A model generated the notes under the pieces. That model did no database searches. It was not told where the DNA came from and saw only the letters and a program-made list of their open reading frames with translations. Shown one piece after another: positions 2,014 to 11,600 of a DNA stretch of 11,600 nt. Position 1 is the stretch's first letter. Every line of letters starts with the position of its first letter. Origin of the DNA: a virus (lineage: Duplodnaviria; Heunggongvirae; Uroviricota; Caudoviricetes). Made by a program: the position numbers and the translations under genes. The stretch is from IMG/VR virus record IMGVR_UViG_2778261569_000001, positions 1-11,600 of that record, one strand, 5' to 3'.

Positions 2014-2055
2014 TTGACTTTTTGAATAAAGTTGGGTAAATTTGACATCAACGAT
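2014..2055 (+). promoter_or_regulatory. Late promoter pR' with qut element and promoter-proximal pause signal
   Basis: TTGACT at 2014-2019, 17-bp spacer, TAAATT at 2037-2042; AACGAT at 2050-2055 corresponds to the -10-like pause-inducing element of lambda pR'. The region is near-identical to recalled lambda pR'/qut. Confidence 0.7.
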
Positions 2056-2078
2056 GGATAAATGCACTCGTTAAATAA

Positions 2079-2114
2079 AGCCCTGAGTTAATAGCTCGGG
2101 GCTTTTTGCGTTTT
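2079..2114 (+). terminator. Intrinsic terminator (tR'-like) ending a short pR' leader RNA
   Basis: Stem AGCCCTGAG (2079-2087) pairs with CTCGGGGCT (2095-2103) over 9 bp with one G-U, 7-nt loop, then TTTT-GCG-TTTT. It lies about 30-60 nt downstream of the predicted pR' start. Confidence 0.7.
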
Positions 2115-2729: not shown

Positions 2730-3189
2730 TCAACGTAAGGCGTTCCTCGATATGCTGGCGTGGTCAGAGGGGACTGATAACGGACGTCAGAAAACCAGAA
2801 ATCATGGTTATGACGTCATTGTAGGCGGAGAGCTATTCACTGATTACTCAGATCACCCTCGCAAACTTGTCACGCTAAACCCCAAACTCAAATCAACAGC
2901 TGCAGGCCGTTACCAGCTTCTTTCCCGTTGGTGGGATGCCTATCGTAAGCAGCTTGGCCTGAAAGATTTCTCTCCGAAAAGCCAGGACGCTGTGGCATTG
3001 CAACAGATTAAAGAGCGTGGCGCTTTGCCGATGATTGATCGCGGTGATATCCGTCAGGCAATCGACCGTTGCAGCAATATCTGGGCTTCATTGCCGGGAG
3101 CTGGTTATGGTCAGTTCGAGCATAAGGCTGACAGTCTGATTTCAAAATTCAAAGAAGCAGGCGGAACGGTCAGAGAGATTGAGGTATGA
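2713..3189 (+). CDS. R: Endolysin R (lytic transglycosylase)
   Basis: 158 aa [24 protein letters not shown]... matches lambda R, including the catalytic Glu in WSEGT. Start overlaps the S 3' end; GGAG at 2703-2706. Confidence 0.9.
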
Positions 3190-3623
3190 GCAGAGTCACC
3201 GCGATTATCTCCGCTCTGGTTATCTGCATCATCGTCTGCCTGTCATGGGCTGTTAATCATTACCGTGATAACGCCATGACCTACAAAGAGCAGCGCGATA
3301 AAGCCATATCCATCATCGCTGATATGCAGAAGCGTCAACGTGATGTAGCAGAACTTGACGCCAGATACACAAAGGAGCTTGCTGATGCTAACGCGACTAT
3401 CGAAAGTCTCCGTGCTGATGTTTCTGCTGGTCGTAAGCGCCTGCAAGTCGCCGCCACCTGTGCAAAGTCAACGACCGGAGCCAGCAGCATGGGCGATGGA
3501 GAAAGCCCAAGACTTACAGCAGATGCTGAACTCAATTATTACCGTCTCCGAAGTGGAATCGACAGGATAACCGCGCAGGTTAACTACCTGCAGGAATACA
3601 TCAGGACGCAATGCCTTCGATGA
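3186..3623 (+). CDS. Rz: Rz i-spanin
   Basis: 145 aa; the N-terminal TM anchor [30 protein letters not shown] matches lambda Rz, followed by a coiled-coil-like periplasmic domain whose C-terminal half diverges from lambda. ATGA overlap with the R stop. Confidence 0.8.
3385..3570 (+). CDS. Rz1: Rz1 o-spanin (outer-membrane lipoprotein) embedded in Rz in the +1 frame
   Basis: ATG 3385 preceded by AAAGGAG at 3371-3377. 61 aa [27 protein letters not shown]... with signal peptide, lipobox LVVSAC and a Pro-rich segment. It lies entirely inside Rz. The track ORF 3355..3570 is the same frame with an earlier start. Confidence 0.7.
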
Positions 3624-3797
3624 TAGCGATAATTTTACTCATCATCCTTCACATCTAGCTCTGTAGACAGGGTGATGATCACTTCTGGAGTGAATCCAGA
3701 TTAAACATCTCATTGCTGATGCTTGATATTGAGCATCTGGCGCGCGGTAAGGGGCTGCGTTGAGATAAGAGCCAGTCATTACAAATACCAGGATTTA

Positions 3798-3821
3798 GCC
3801 TCGCATTTGCGGGGCTTTTTT
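3798..3821 (+). terminator. Intrinsic terminator downstream of Rz
   Basis: GCCTCGC (3798-3804), loop ATTT, GCGGGGC (3809-3815): 7-bp GC-rich stem with one G-U, followed by TTTTTT (3816-3821). Confidence 0.6.
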
Positions 3822-3969
3822 ACATCTGCAGTAAACCGCGCATCGCAGCGCGTAACAATCCCGAGTCTTTCAGAAAGCTGAGCCTGAGAATTGCCGTATA
3901 TGGTGGCGACCATCTCGGGGACGGCTTTTCTGTGCGAACAGGCTCATCTTTCTAAAAGGTAAAGACGCA

Positions 3970-4512
3970 ATGAACTACCCAACCGTTGTTAACGATATAG
4001 ATTTCAGAGACCTAATTTTTGTAGCAAACAACGATCCGGTTACAGATTCTTTTATGGTGGCAAAAGCATTTGGAAAGCTGCCGAAGAACGTGGTTCGTGA
4101 CATTGAACGAACCATAGAAGCTTGCCCTCCTGAGTTTGATACAAAGCTCAACTTTGAGCTTTGCTATAAAAACAATGAGTTACAGAATGGTAAGCCGCAA
4201 AAATTCTACCGTCTCCGCAAGGATGGGTTGATGCTTTTGGTTATGTCCTACACCAAAAAAGAAGCAATGCGTATCAAAATTGCTTACATCAACGCATTCA
4301 ACTGGATGTACGCCATGCTTCAGGTTGGTCATCGTCAATTTGAAGAAGAGAGAAATGCCGTAATGCTGGAGTACATGAAAGAGAAGGATGTTGCCAGCAT
4401 GTCAGGCCGCCTGCTTAATCGCTGGGGAAAAATTAAGAAGCCTCAGCTACTGGCGAGAATTGAACGCCTTGAACAGCACGGGCAAACCGTAATCCCCGGA
4501 CTCACCAATTAA
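3970..4512 (+). CDS. rha: Rha family phage regulatory protein
   Basis: 180 aa; the N-terminal domain matches the Phage_pRha pattern (..VAKAFGK...NVVRDIER......EF...NFE......G.....YRLRKDG.MLLVMSYTKKEA...K.AYINAFN.M). It occupies the position of P22 orf201/rha between the lysis genes and terminase. Confidence 0.7.
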   Translation: MNYPTVVNDIDFRDLIFVANNDPVTDSFMVAKAFGKLPKNVVRDIERTIEACPPEFDTKLNFELCYKNNELQNGKPQKFYRLRKDGLMLLVMSYTKKEAMRIKIAYINAFNWMYAMLQVGHRQFEEERNAVMLEYMKEKDVASMSGRLLNRWGKIKKPQLLARIERLEQHGQTVIPGLTN

Positions 4513-4739
4513 CGGCAGTACAGCGAAACAACCCAAGCCAGTAAGTGGGGAAATAACACTGGCAGCCACTGAAAGATGAACCTCCAGCCTTATGGCAAAA
4601 AAGATTCTTTGTGGTGGCGGACTGATGGAAAGACATCGGTTATTGCAGAGGCCATTCAATGAGTGGTCTCGACAATGGCTTATACCCTACACGGGATAAC
4701 TTAACTGATATCCCTTTTAACGGATAAACGGAGCCAACA

Positions 4740-4982
4740 ATGGCAGAGATTATTCCCATGACTGAAGAACAGAAATTCCAGTTAGAGATTTACAAACTGG
4801 TCATGAACCAGAACGCAGCCGCAGAAGAAGCATTTCAGTTCATTGGCACTGACGAGCTGAAGCTTGAGTTATTCAAAATTCACTTCCAGTCAGGCGGCGC
4901 TAATTCGGATATCACGACCCGCACTATCGAAGCGGTGCGTAAATCGAAGGAAGCTTTAGACCTGTTCACCACCGGAGCATAA
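4740..4982 (+). CDS. hypothetical protein (80 aa)
   Basis: ATG ORF of 80 aa with no recognisable domain. Its position and length resemble P22 orf80 upstream of the small terminase gene. GGAG-like sequence upstream. Confidence 0.5.
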   Translation: MAEIIPMTEEQKFQLEIYKLVMNQNAAAEEAFQFIGTDELKLELFKIHFQSGGANSDITTRTIEAVRKSKEALDLFTTGA

Positions 4983-4984
4983 AC

Positions 4985-5056
4985 ATGGCAACTCAAGGTT
5001 TCGACAACCCATCCAAATTCCGCGATGAATGGGATAAGCAAGCAGAAGGGAAATAA
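4985..5056 (+). CDS. possible micro-ORF (23 aa, MATQGFDNPSKFRDEWDKQAEGK)
   Basis: ATG at 4985 lies 10 nt after GGAG (4972-4975) and fills the gap between the 80-aa ORF stop and the small terminase start. Too short to support by composition alone. Confidence 0.15.
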   Translation: MATQGFDNPSKFRDEWDKQAEGK

Positions 5057-5061
5057 TCAAT

Positions 5062-5487
5062 ATGGCGACTGAGAAAAAGAATGTCGGTCGCCCTTCGGAT
5101 TACCTGCCGGAGGTGGCTGATGATATCTGTGCGCTGCTTGCCTCCGGGGAAAGTCTGGTTAAGGTTTGCAAGCGCCCCGGCATGCCAGCAAAGGCTACTG
5201 TATTTCGCTGGCTGTCAGAGCATGAAGAATTTAGAGACAAGTACGCGAAGGCAACTGAGGCACGAGCTGATTCTATTTTCGAAGAGATATTCGAAATTGC
5301 TGACACTGCGATTCCAGATGCTGCTGAGGTGGCAAAGGCAAGACTTCGCGTTGATACCCGCAAATGGGCGCTGGCCAGAATGAATCCCCGTAAGTATGGC
5401 GACAAGGTAACTAATGAGCTTGTCGGCAAAGACGGCGGCGCAATCCAGATTGAAACATCACCGATGAGCACTCTGTTCGGAAAATGA
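5062..5487 (+). CDS. Terminase small subunit (Sf6 gp1-like)
   Basis: 141 aa; GRPSDYLPEVADDICALLASGESLVKVCKRPGMPAKATVFRWLSEHEEFRDKYAKA is the characteristic HTH DNA-recognition N-terminus of Sf6/P22-like small terminases. Its stop overlaps the large subunit start. Confidence 0.8.
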   Translation: MATEKKNVGRPSDYLPEVADDICALLASGESLVKVCKRPGMPAKATVFRWLSEHEEFRDKYAKATEARADSIFEEIFEIADTAIPDAAEVAKARLRVDTRKWALARMNPRKYGDKVTNELVGKDGGAIQIETSPMSTLFGK

Positions 5488-9189: not shown

Positions 9190-10110
9190 ATGGACCAGAT
9201 GGCAGAAAACACACCAGAAGTTGAAATCGAAACCGACGCGTCAGAGCAGATTCCTGATGATGTCGAACTGGCTGAAGAAGTCGAAACAGAAGATGGCAGT
9301 GAGTCCTCCGGCAATGATGCAGAGGAAGCTACTGAAACTGATGACGACGAATCAGAACAGGAATTCTACTTTGGTGACGAAAAGCTGGATTCGCCAACCA
9401 GCGAAGATGGCGCAGAGCATGGACTGGTAAAACACCTGCGCAAGACGATTAAAGAGAAAGACCGCGAGCTGAAAGAGCTGATGCGTCAGTCTCAGAAACC
9501 CGTCGAGCAGCAGCCGGTAATCACTCAACCACCGCGAATGCCAAAACTGGATGATGAGGACATCGGTTTCGATGAAGAAATCTACCAGCAACGCATGGCT
9601 AAGTGGGCAGAGGATAACGGCAAGTACCAGCAACAGGAGATGGCTCGCAAGCAGAAGGAGCAGGAGCTTCAGGCTGCCTATCAAGAGCGATTATCCAAAT
9701 ATCAGCAACGTGTTAAGGCTCTCAAAGTTCCTGGCTATCAGGAAGCAGAACAGGCCGTACTCGAGGAAATCCCCATCGAGACACAAAACGCGATCCTGTT
9801 TGAGTCAGAGAAGCCGGAAATCGTTGTTCTGGCACTCGGTCGCAACGCTGAACTGCGCAAGCAACTGGCAGAAGCTACCAACCCCGTAGCAATTGGTCGT
9901 CTGCTGGAACGTATCGAATCGAAGGCCAGAATCATGCCAAAAGCAAAAACCACGGCAGCCACAACCCCGACAGTTAAGGGGAGCAACGGCGCAGTAATCA
10001 ACAACCTCGGCAAATTGAAAGCCAAGGCGCTGGAAACTGGTGACTGGACGCCGTATTTCGCCGCTAAAAAGGCAAAAAAAATAACCTATCGGAGCATTAA
10101 GCATGGCTAA
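9190..10110 (+). CDS. Scaffolding protein (P22 gp8-like)
   Basis: 306 aa; highly acidic N-terminus, central coiled-coil-like region rich in Q/E/K/R, basic C-terminal helix-turn-helix-like tail (KAKALETGDWTPYFAAKKAKK). Sits between portal and coat as in P22-like phages. Stop overlaps the coat start. Confidence 0.7.
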   Translation: MDQMAENTPEVEIETDASEQIPDDVELAEEVETEDGSESSGNDAEEATETDDDESEQEFYFGDEKLDSPTSEDGAEHGLVKHLRKTIKEKDRELKELMRQSQKPVEQQPVITQPPRMPKLDDEDIGFDEEIYQQRMAKWAEDNGKYQQQEMARKQKEQELQAAYQERLSKYQQRVKALKVPGYQEAEQAVLEEIPIETQNAILFESEKPEIVVLALGRNAELRKQLAEATNPVAIGRLLERIESKARIMPKAKTTAATTPTVKGSNGAVINNLGKLKAKALETGDWTPYFAAKKAKKITYRSIKHG

Positions 10111-11229
10111 CCAATTAGCAAAAGACCTTGAAATCATGTTCGAAAACTACGTTGAAGGCTTTGAGGCCGCCTGCGTAGTTTCCCGTAACGCTAAAAAATT
10201 CCGTCCCGGTGATACAGCAATGCAGCGAGCAGGTGATGTTCTGTATCGTCCGCAGCATTACCACATGAATATTGAGGAAGGCCTAGACCTCAGCGGCAAA
10301 ACGCCAACAGCACTGGTTCAGCGCCTTGTTCCTTCTGTGTTCAAGGAGCCGAAAAACATTCTGTACACTCTGGATGCGCGTGAAATGCGTGACCCGGAAC
10401 ATAAAACTGAAGCTGGTCGAGCCGCAGGTATGCGCCTTGCTGCACAGATTGACTCTGACCTGATTTCCATGGTCACGCAGCGTGCTACTAACGTGATCAC
10501 GATGGCTGACTCAACCACAGGTTCACAGGGCCGTGATTTGTGGAACTGTGCGGCAGGTATTGATGCCACCATGACGGCGATTGGTGTACCGCAGGGTATC
10601 AACCGTCGCTCTTTCTGGAACCCCTTCAACTACAAAGACCTTGCTGGCGAGCTTGGTCACCGTGCCTACGCTCAGGGCGCAACCCTGACAGCATACGAAA
10701 AAGCGCAGATCCCTCCGGTTGCTTCCTTTGATAGCTACAAGACCGATATTTCTGGTCGATTACCGAAAGGAAGCGCTGAATCCTTGACAGTATCAGGCCA
10801 ACCTGAACACAAGGTTGAAGCGAAAGATTCAAATGGTATGCCAGTTGATAACCGACAGGGGACTATTACGGTATCTGCATCTGGCTTGCAGGTTGGTGAT
10901 GCGTTCACCATTGCCGGTGTGAATTCCGTACACCAGATCACAAAAGATACCACCGGGCAACCGCAGGTATTCCGTGTTCTGGCTGTTAGCGGAACTACCG
11001 TAACAATCTCTCCAAAGATTCTCCCTGTTGAAAATACCGATGTTGCGAGTCGTCCATATGCAAACGTCGATGCCAAACCGGCAGCATCAGCAGCAATCAC
11101 CATTCTCAACAAGAACGCAGCACCTGCTAACCTGTTCTGGGCTGATGGTTCTGTTGAGCTGATGTACGGCAAACTGGCGTTCCCGACTGGTCAGGGTCCA
11201 CAGGTAATGACAGCAACCACCGAGCAGGG
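10103..11229 (+). pseudogene. Major coat protein gene (P22/Sf6 gp5-like), 3' end displaced by IS insertion
   Basis: Reading frame from ATG 10103; the C-terminal region contains NLFWADGSVEL, resembling the P22 coat motif NVFWADDAIRI. The frame runs into IS sequence at about 11230 and stops at 11278 after 15-16 IS-encoded residues. About 45 C-terminal residues are missing compared with P22-like coats of roughly 420-430 aa. Confidence 0.75.
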
Positions 11230-11600
11230 TGAACCGCCCCGGAAATCCTGGAGACTAAACTCCCTGAGAAAGAGGTAAACAGGATGACTAAAAATACTCG
11301 TTTTTCCCCCGAAGTCCGTCAGCGGGCGATTCGTATGGTTCTGGAAAGTCAGGATGAATATGACTCACAGTGGGCGGCAATTTGTTCCATTGCCCCAAAG
11401 ATTGGCTGTACGCCGGAGACTCTGCGTGTCTGGGTTCGCCAGCATGAGCGGGATACCGGGGGCGGTGATGGTGGGCTCACCAGCGCTGAACGTCAGCGTC
11501 TGAAAGAGCTGGAACGTGAAAATCGTGAACTGCGCCGCAGTAACGATATCCTTCGCCAGGCTTCCGCTTATTTTGCGAAGGCGGAGTTCGACCGCCTCTG
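11230..11600 (+). mobile_element. IS3-family insertion sequence (IS629/IS1203-like), left end; continues past window edge
   Basis: Terminal sequence TGAACCGCCCCGG... beginning at 11230 (typical IS3-family TG end), followed by an RBS and the OrfA start at 11284. The coat-gene homology breaks exactly here. Confidence 0.8.
11284..11600 (+). CDS. IS3-family transposase OrfA (partial, 3' end outside window)
   Basis: [60 protein letters not shown]...[41 protein letters not shown]: HTH plus leucine-zipper OrfA typical of IS629-like elements. RBS AGAGG at about 11271. Confidence 0.85.

Follow-up and report, generated by a model that had tools for sequence, protein, structure and literature searches.

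We examined an 11,600 nucleotide stretch of a Caudoviricetes virus record (IMGVR_UViG_2778261569_000001; "the window") and concentrated on the interval at positions 3624-4739, which lies between the lysis gene Rz and a DUF2560 gene and carries rha. We consider it probable that this interval is a conserved module of the late operon, comprising an intrinsic terminator, a 135 nt structured mRNA leader and a swappable gene for a DNA-binding protein, and that it is not an autonomous moron. The original prediction, made from the letters of the window, had described the interval as an accessory (moron) region with a terminator, a possible operator and a Rha-family regulator. The structure of the leader is well supported by comparison of related sequences. 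The parts of the proposed module are as follows.

3797-3822, plus strand: intrinsic terminator found by scan, with its stem at 3797-3816 (8 pairs, 6 of them G-C), loop AUUU and U-tract at 3817-3822.
3835-3972 (through the ATG), plus strand: structured mRNA leader of the gene in the rha slot, a covariance-model match of 134.8 bits.
3838-3851, plus strand: hairpin P1, GCGC 3838-3841 with GCGC 3848-3851.
3860-3865, plus strand: 5′ arm of helix H1, CCCGAG, adjoining helix L and pairing with 3914-3919.
3866-3886, plus strand: 5′ strand of helix L, with the anti-Shine-Dalgarno sequence UCUUU at 3866-3870, pairing with 3939-3959.
3887-3890, plus strand: 5′ strand of helix L2, AGAA, pairing with UUCU 3928-3931 in RNAalifold and in the minimum free energy (MFE) fold.
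3893-3896 with 3922-3925, plus strand: helix P4 of the apical domain (3893-3925), GCCG with CGGC, enclosing P3 and the 3′ arm of H1.
3900-3904 with 3909-3913, plus strand: helix P3 of the apical domain, AUGGU with ACCAU, loop GGCG.
3914-3919, plus strand: 3′ arm of H1, CUCGGG, in the internal loop between P3 and P4, crossing L and P4.
3939-3959, plus strand: 3′ strand of helix L, including the Shine-Dalgarno (SD) sequence AAGG at 3956-3959, from RNAalifold and the model alignment.
3970-4512, plus strand: rha, from ATG 3970 to TAA 4512, encoding a 180-aa Rha-family protein with a Rha N-terminal domain and an ORF11CD3 C-terminal domain.

Identity over the 173 bases that run from terminator to ATG is 77-100% before all of the genes found in the rha position (the cargo genes), and the differences come in pairs. 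RNAalifold, run on plain MAFFT alignments that were not fitted to any structure, recovered P1, helix L with the SD inside it and the 4 bp helix L2. The MFE fold of the single sequence (-67.2 kcal/mol, z = -3.16) is consistent with this and has P4 and P3 in addition, at the tip. The SD at 3956-3959 is paired with 3866-3869 in all three, the MFE fold, the RNAalifold prediction and the model alignment. We built a covariance model (R1) on P1, L, P4 and P3, and its scores were 45-146 bits on the plus strand versus 14-24 bits on the minus strand. In the model alignment, 93.4% of cells are standard pairs, versus 31-48% when the partners are slid by 1-3 columns; both sides change in 21 of the 32 pairs, and the observed values were not reached in any of 500 column shuffles. 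Across the two alignments that were counted (model and curated), 93-94% of cells are paired versus 31-49% after sliding, and 21-23 pairs change on both sides. Helix L has 19 pairs over 21 positions, of which 14 change on both sides (93% of cells paired versus 31-49% slid), and it carries two conserved 1x1 mismatches. Changes on both sides were also seen in three of the four P4 pairs and four of the five P3 pairs. P1 occurs in nearly all members examined and is lost in one Stx2 phage, but is uninformative because its pairs do not vary. The leader alignment contains 29 G.U cells and 12 A.C cells, and two unpaired trinucleotides never vary: GAG, at the end of L, and CUG, which precedes the 3′ strand.

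The SD and anti-SD also covary. The changes seen in the SD/anti-SD pairs are UA to AU, UA to CG and CG to UA, and in Cronobacter, Enterobacter and one E. coli lineage an SD of UAGG is matched by CCUA instead of CUUU. An inner helix of other sequence still pairs in P22 (GGGCCUUUG/CAAAGGUUC), Erwinia, Pantoea, Providencia and Xenorhabdus, and the helices other than P1 keep pairing across phi80, P22, Stx phages and prophages of approximately 13 Enterobacterales genera. As the SD is paired within a conserved structure and covaries with the anti-SD, we infer that the leader behaves like an SD-sequestering translational leader. A protein-coding reading of the leader was considered and is excluded on both strands, because one-base indels separate the variants.

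H1 provides an independent test of the fold, as it was not part of the covariance model. Every lineage has a helix of 6-8 bp at the same place, and its arms take at least 13 different sequences, including CGAGAG/CUCUCG (phi80 and HK620), CCACCGA/UCGGUGG (P22), CCCUAAG/CUUAGGG, CCGAAGA/UCUUCGG, CCAAGAG/CUCUUGG, CUCAGAA/UUCUGAG, CGUCGAA/UUCGACG, CACCGA/UCGGUG and CCCAGAG/CUCUGGG, among others. Positions 2-6 are paired in all 21 of the 21 distinct arm combinations, and the shuffle p values per lineage range from 0.004 to 0.056. We also prepared a curated H1 alignment, with the register set by a fixed rule and N as padding; there, pairing holds in 92.5% of cells and both sides change in 6 of the 7 pairs, in a register that comes from our own rule. 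H1 crosses both L and P4, and thus implies either a pseudoknot or an alternative fold. It would either lock the fold as a pseudoknot or act as an alternative fold that delays closure of L, forming first on the nascent RNA, where the 3′ strand of L does not yet exist.

The leader is widespread. Upstream of the original rha of phi80 lies a leader with 83.7% identity, and upstream of the rha of P22 a divergent one (68.7 bits), each with its terminator. It was detected in 168 phage records, including those of Stx phages, HK639 and HK106 and of Klebsiella, Enterobacter, Citrobacter, Hafnia, Cronobacter, Pantoea and Erwinia phages, and in 915 of 5426 complete E. coli genomes (~17%), with up to 4 copies per genome. 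Leaders also lie upstream of Rha genes in Providencia, Xenorhabdus and Pragia. In Pragia fontium CP010423 (locus L264, 1366-2040), the leader and rha are located between a major-tail (Big_2) gene and genes on the tape-measure side. Since a rha among tail genes still has its leader, the leader belongs to the gene and not to the lysis-packaging junction. Some phages have tandem cassettes in which each leader stands before its own gene (KilA-N types and one unknown 141-aa protein). Paired leaders were found 1.1-1.3 kb apart (locus L007, 7322-7457 and 8512-8625; locus L208, 3516-3648 and 4843-4974) and ~12.5 kb apart (locus L083, 13001-13134 and 341-462).

The terminator that precedes the leader has the hairpin AGCCTCGC-ATTT-GCGGGGCT followed by TTTTTT, and a terminator is annotated at this hairpin in the records of epsilon34, phi80 and HK639. 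At least five stem sequences occur among relatives, all of which pair (GCCUCGC/GCGGGGC, GCCUGAC/GUCGGGC, GCCUCAC/GUGGGGC, GCCUUGC/GCAGGGC and AGCCAGC/GCUGGCU). The scan match, the annotations in relatives and these compensatory changes in the stem bear out the original prediction that an intrinsic terminator is present, and it is conserved. The idea in the same prediction that the terminator could bar polymerase lacking Q modification from rha is plausible from the arrangement of the sequence, because the position of the terminator directly 5′ of the leader is fixed in most of the phages examined. We also considered a small RNA ending at the terminator, and rejected it: the DNA upstream (3617-3796) is an indel that is swapped for unrelated sequence in many phages. 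This upstream DNA folds no better than shuffles (z = -1.47).

If the module works as we propose, rha would be made only from the Q-antiterminated late transcript, and polymerase that is not Q-modified would be stopped at the terminator. The leader would occlude the ribosome-binding site (RBS), so that a potentially harmful DNA-binding protein would be translated only weakly or under certain conditions. Something would have to open helix L; RNase III cleavage, a host or phage factor, or a ligand (through an H1/L switch) would all be compatible with the proposal. Such restraint would matter because Rha is reported (PMC4936722) to block phage growth in hosts defective in integration host factor (IHF), and because other cargo proteins are DNA binders or nuclease-like. 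The phi80 record carries a note on inhibition of DNA synthesis by Rha. Post-transcriptional restraint of ANT/KilA-type regulators carried in phage late regions has precedents in sar-ant of P22 and c4-icd-ant of P1/P7 (the C4 family of Rfam), where antirepressor genes are under antisense control (PMC2629481 for part of this). Those systems use a separate antisense RNA, whereas the partner here is in cis, and the leader has no match in Rfam, C4 included.

The long helix could instead be mainly an RNase III processing site, at which cleavage would free or destroy the RBS and separate the lysis and rha messages. By analogy with known sites this is possible, if somewhat unlikely. Helix L with L2 is an imperfect duplex of ~19 + 4 bp (about two turns) with two conserved 1x1 mismatches and the SD inside, and it is located between two functional blocks of one long transcript, but its three-part apical domain and H1 are more elaborate than such a site needs. 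The hairpin of the lambda N leader is an RNase III-sensitive structure that occludes the RBS of N, and the intercistronic sites of T7 are RNase III processing sites. Like the lambda N leader, the rha leader is a long imperfect helix in a phage mRNA leader that includes the SD of a regulator gene; unlike it, the rha leader has an extra apical domain and the crossing H1, and the two share no sequence similarity.

The two mutually crossing helices, both under selection, raise the question of whether the leader acts as a sensor, either in the manner of a riboswitch or by binding a protein or small RNA, with H1 and L as alternative folds toggled by host state. The invariant unpaired GAG and CUG would suit such a role, as would the dependence of Rha toxicity on the IHF status of the host (PMC4936722). 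We nevertheless think a sensor unlikely. L is more stable than the H1-only fold by 13 kcal/mol, we know of no ligand or factor that could be a candidate, and a search of the whole window for the IHF consensus WATCAANNNNTTR found no match. There is also no match to a riboswitch or other family in Rfam: a search of 3600-4000 against Rfam 15 at permissive E-values returned best scores of 10-20 bits, versus gathering scores of 35-70, and all were on the terminator hairpin. A more specific form, which we regard as doubtful, is that the leader represents an undescribed class of cis-regulatory RNA, a pseudoknotted switch that would sense host state (a metabolite, the level of RNase III or an IHF-dependent factor) and gate the late synthesis of interchangeable DNA-binding proteins (Rha, KilA-N, Ant, T5orf172 and HNH) across the lambdoid phages of Enterobacterales. 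If true, this would give a molecular basis for the 40-year-old phenotype of Rha and its IHF dependence.

Gain, loss and exchange of the module were evident when ~94 related loci, retrieved with a 15-mer from the region of the RBS, were mapped to the window. Breakpoints recur at 3588 (in Rz), 3616|3797, 3974 (just after the cargo ATG), 4503 (at the rha stop), 4637|4639 and 4980, and the junctions at 3797, 3974, 4503 and 4637 are found in dozens of loci. Sf6 lacks 3786-4502 altogether, indicating that the unit gained or lost is terminator, leader and gene together; within this unit, the gene is swapped between fixed flanks. Translation of all the loci from the ATG aligned with 3970 identified the cargo as several Rha alleles that differ greatly from one another, KilA-N proteins (some with ORF11CD3 and some lacking it), one ANT/KilAC antirepressor, T5orf172/MUG113 (GIY-YIG-like) proteins, one HNH-like protein and one unknown protein. 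Iyer, Koonin and Aravind are said to have described, in 2002, a set of domain-shuffled viral DNA-binding regulators (KilA-N, Bro-N, Rha, T5orf172, ANT/KilAC and ORF11CD3). The cargo of the leader is exactly this set of proteins, often with a shared C-terminal ORF11CD3 domain. What differs is the shared 5′ RNA leader found here, the 2002 work being on proteins, as far as we found.

The mosaic junctions coincide exactly with the ends of the conserved blocks (at 3974, just past the ATG, and at 4503, the stop), and identical flanks surround many different cargo genes. The leader might thus be only a boundary sequence at the DNA level, which would provide recombination homology for cargo exchange and play no part as RNA. 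For HK620, Clark et al. reportedly described boundary sequences of this sort at lambdoid module junctions in 2001, and like them the leader is a conserved intergenic block that flanks exchangeable genes and has junctions at its edges. The CUS-3 and Sf6 records mark boundary sequences (as "bsq" features) at other places; the leader carries no bsq label in these records, and, unlike boundary sequences, it shows base-pair covariation and buries the RBS. Recombination homology requires no pairing, yet four helices and the SD/anti-SD covary. Furthermore, the signal is strand-specific, and the versions in P22, Erwinia, Providencia and Xenorhabdus are the same structure with little shared sequence. 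A purely DNA-level role is therefore quite improbable; most likely, the leader also serves as recombination homology, but not as that alone.

The protein encoded in the window belongs to the Rha family, as originally predicted. A Pfam profile search matched Phage_pRha (PF09669) at residues 25-113 (77.1 bits versus a cut-off of 29.9, E = 1.6e-21) and ORF11CD3 at residues 125-176 (91.2 bits versus a cut-off of 25, E = 4.7e-26). The protein is 100% identical to that of CUS-3. It shares ~56% identity with Rha alleles of Salmonella phages, a figure that does not refer to the Rha of P22 itself; the P22 translation has a C-terminal domain 63% identical to that in the window. Comparison of Rha with PDB sequences found no relative, and a Foldseek search of PDB with an AlphaFold model (pLDDT 75) gave no match below E = 0.8, only faint winged-helix-like ones.

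RefSeq places the start of rha at the same ATG as ours. In other phages the annotated starts lie inside the structured leader, namely for P22 orf201 (locus L258, 1076-1681; 201 aa), CUS-3 Rha (locus L002, 2001-2612; 203 aa) and phi80 rha (locus L246, 1632-2186). The conserved ATG with its SD gives shorter proteins, of ~179-180 aa in P22 and CUS-3 and ~172 aa in phi80, and the N-terminal extensions are thus probably annotation artefacts. The rha genes of phi80 and P22 are known from earlier work (Mozola and Friedman, 1985; Henthorn and Friedman, 1995; both as cited in PMC4936722). The gene in the window resembles them in family, in its place in the late region after the lysis genes and in the terminator and leader upstream; it differs in that its open reading frame (ORF) starts at the conserved ATG, whereas the annotated starts of P22 orf201, CUS-3 and phi80 run into the leader.

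The original prediction saw in this interval the most likely place in the window for autonomously expressed functions of lysogen benefit or exclusion. On that account, a palindrome upstream would be an operator, rha would have a private promoter and the gene would serve the lysogen. A moron is extra DNA that is present in some relatives and absent from others (PMC2629481), and in this sense the accessory status of the interval stands: the module is dispensable, as Sf6 shows, and the contents of the slot vary, with Huey, epsilon34 and HK620 carrying other genes there. The terminator could also isolate the gene from upstream transcription. The other attributes of a moron, its own promoter and a downstream terminator, were not found. 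A simple scan detected no sigma-70-like promoter with at least 9 of 12 matches between 3624 and 3970 (a weak or non-sigma-70 promoter could escape such a scan), and no terminator-like site in 4513-4739, leaving the one at 3797-3822, upstream of the gene, as the only terminator in the interval. With no promoter-like site, a terminator 5′ of the gene and none before the next gene, an autonomous unit is not supported. In addition, P22 rha is called a late-operon gene in the literature (PMC4936722), and the conserved helix buries the RBS of the gene. We thus regard an autonomous moron as very improbable. The module is like morons in being extra DNA in only some relatives, unrelated to morphogenesis or lysis, and unlike them in its 5′ rather than 3′ terminator, in the lack of a detected promoter of its own and in that the slot is filled in most lambdoid phages by one functional class of gene.

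The palindrome invoked as a possible operator lies in the part of the interval between Rz and the terminator, which also contains a small ORF.

3611-3763, plus strand: small ORF of 50 codons (Sf6 gene 65 / epsilon34 gene 67 family), overlapping the Rz stop.
3718-3737, no strand assigned: imperfect palindrome GATGCTTGATATTGAGCATC, inside the small ORF, with 8 of 10 pairs.

The coordinates of the palindrome and its self-complementarity at 16 of 20 positions were given exactly in the original prediction, as was every other coordinate in it. The operator reading itself is rejected, as symmetry of this grade is at chance level (7 such 20-mers in the window versus 4.5 +/- 2.2 in shuffles), the palindrome sits in the small ORF, and its centre is altered in HK620. 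Moreover, many phages that retain the terminator, leader and gene lack segment 3617-3796, which is an indel; many run from Rz through ~38 unrelated bases into the terminator. The best palindrome of the window, AAAGCTCAACTTTGAGCTTT (9 of 10 pairs), lies at 4143-4162, within the rha coding sequence.

The 345 bp after Rz were described previously as non-coding. The coordinates hold, with Rz ending at 3623, but the stretch comprises a broken small gene, the terminator and the structured leader. The small ORF has a hydrophobic N-terminus, and its family is annotated in Sf6, epsilon34, Sf101, Huey and E. coli 88-3493. It is intact in 41 related loci (25 distinct sequences), and is broken in the window alone by an amber codon, TAG, at 3656-3658 (A3657), where the 41 loci have TGG. 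The E. coli 88-3493 prophage has TGG at this position although its leader is 100% identical to that of the window. Changes among the related loci comprise 12 synonymous and 16 non-synonymous ones, with a mild excess at third positions and of synonymous changes, and the 50-aa product had no family match in Pfam. Nearly all homologues are from E. coli (with one Enterobacter fragment) and most are 80-100% identical, so the coding status of the small ORF is weakly supported.

Several points weigh against the interpretation of the interval as a late-operon module with a translationally controlled gene. We infer translational control from the anatomy of the leader alone. The z-score of the leader fold is moderate, and most of the sequences belong to two closely related types, so that the real diversity amounts to ~12-15 lineages. 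The pair counts lean towards the structure, because alignments A4 and A5 had been fitted to it and our own best-helix rule fixed the H1 register; the unfitted RNAalifold result and direct reading of divergent copies agree with the fitted counts. L alone is predicted at -47 kcal/mol and the H1-only fold at -34 kcal/mol, and, judging from these models, H1 and L may or may not be able to coexist sterically. The hairpin at the terminator position in Pantoea phage PA-1 has no U-tract, and the simple promoter scan could have missed a weak internal promoter.

The presence of Rha after the lysis genes is already known and ordinary. The RNA element before rha appears to be unrecorded in Rfam 15 and in the literature searched; no description of the leader was found there, and an earlier mention of dyad symmetry upstream of rha is possible. 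If confirmed, the leader would add a new structured-RNA family to phage annotation, and start codons set too far upstream (P22 orf201, CUS-3 and phi80 rha) would be corrected. It would also mean that one post-transcriptional control device is common to a class of domain-shuffled phage DNA-binding regulators, and mutants in the SD/anti-SD and H1 would offer a handle on the harm done by Rha in IHF-defective hosts.

Downstream of rha, a second point of cassette insertion lies in a further intergenic stretch.

4513-4739, plus strand: conserved, strongly folding intergenic stretch before the DUF2560 gene, with the second insertion point at 4637|4639.

The original prediction gave this as 227 bp of non-coding DNA. 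The length is correct and no ORF longer than 35 aa is present, but the stretch is not plain non-coding DNA, being conserved and strongly folding. One of its short ORFs, none of them above 35 aa, is the orf25 annotated in P22. The stretch is 94-98% conserved among P22-like phages, which is too similar for a covariation test, and 4510-4745 folds as a row of hairpins (-73.8 kcal/mol, z = -4.0 versus shuffles). The insertion point at 4637|4639 lies in the 3′ arm of one of these hairpins. In other phages it holds Sf6 gene 66, and in Sf6 and Huey it holds a gene of ~126 aa, labelled anti-CRISPR in the Huey record. In P22 (locus L258, ~1900-2515), ~600 bp between orf25 and orf80 have no annotated gene. 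At the start of this gap is a hairpin with an A-run before it, resembling a terminator on the minus strand, and an unannotated leftward gene may thus be present.

By its sequence, the window comes from a P22-like (Lederbergvirus) phage or prophage, of which it represents the late region. Across 3400-5100 it shares 99.2% identity with Shigella phage Sf101 and 98.9% with coliphage CUS-3. The genes and signals around the module are listed below.

1348-1971: Q antiterminator, followed in gene order by holin, endolysin and Rz/Rz1.
2014-2042, plus strand: pR'-like promoter TTGACT-17-TAAATT, just 3′ of Q, found by scan.
2077-2105, plus strand: tR'-like terminator with 13 pairs, just 3′ of Q, found by scan.
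3186-3623, plus strand: Rz (i-spanin), the last lysis gene (Pfam Phage_lysis, E = 2.8e-36), annotated in Sf101 and CUS-3.
~3385-3570: Rz1, embedded in Rz, annotated in Sf101 and CUS-3.
4740-4982, plus strand: DUF2560 gene (P22 orf80 / HK620 hkbM), the next late gene (Pfam E = 1.1e-43).

Genes for Sf6-type small and large terminases lie 3′ of the DUF2560 gene. Given Q, the pR'-like promoter and the tR'-like terminator, late transcription here should be Q-dependent as in lambda, by analogy within this phage family. Region 2014-2105 is presumably a short constitutive late leader transcript and Q target; on its plus strand we noted a weak isrJ-like Rfam match (28 bits, under the gathering score). 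At the far end of the window, 11565-11600 (plus strand) matches the 5′ part of the ALIL pseudoknot (RF01497; 39.2 bits, E = 2e-7), cut off by the window end. ALIL is a frameshift element of IS3-family insertion sequences, and an insertion sequence has probably inserted 3′ of the ORF at 10103-11278.

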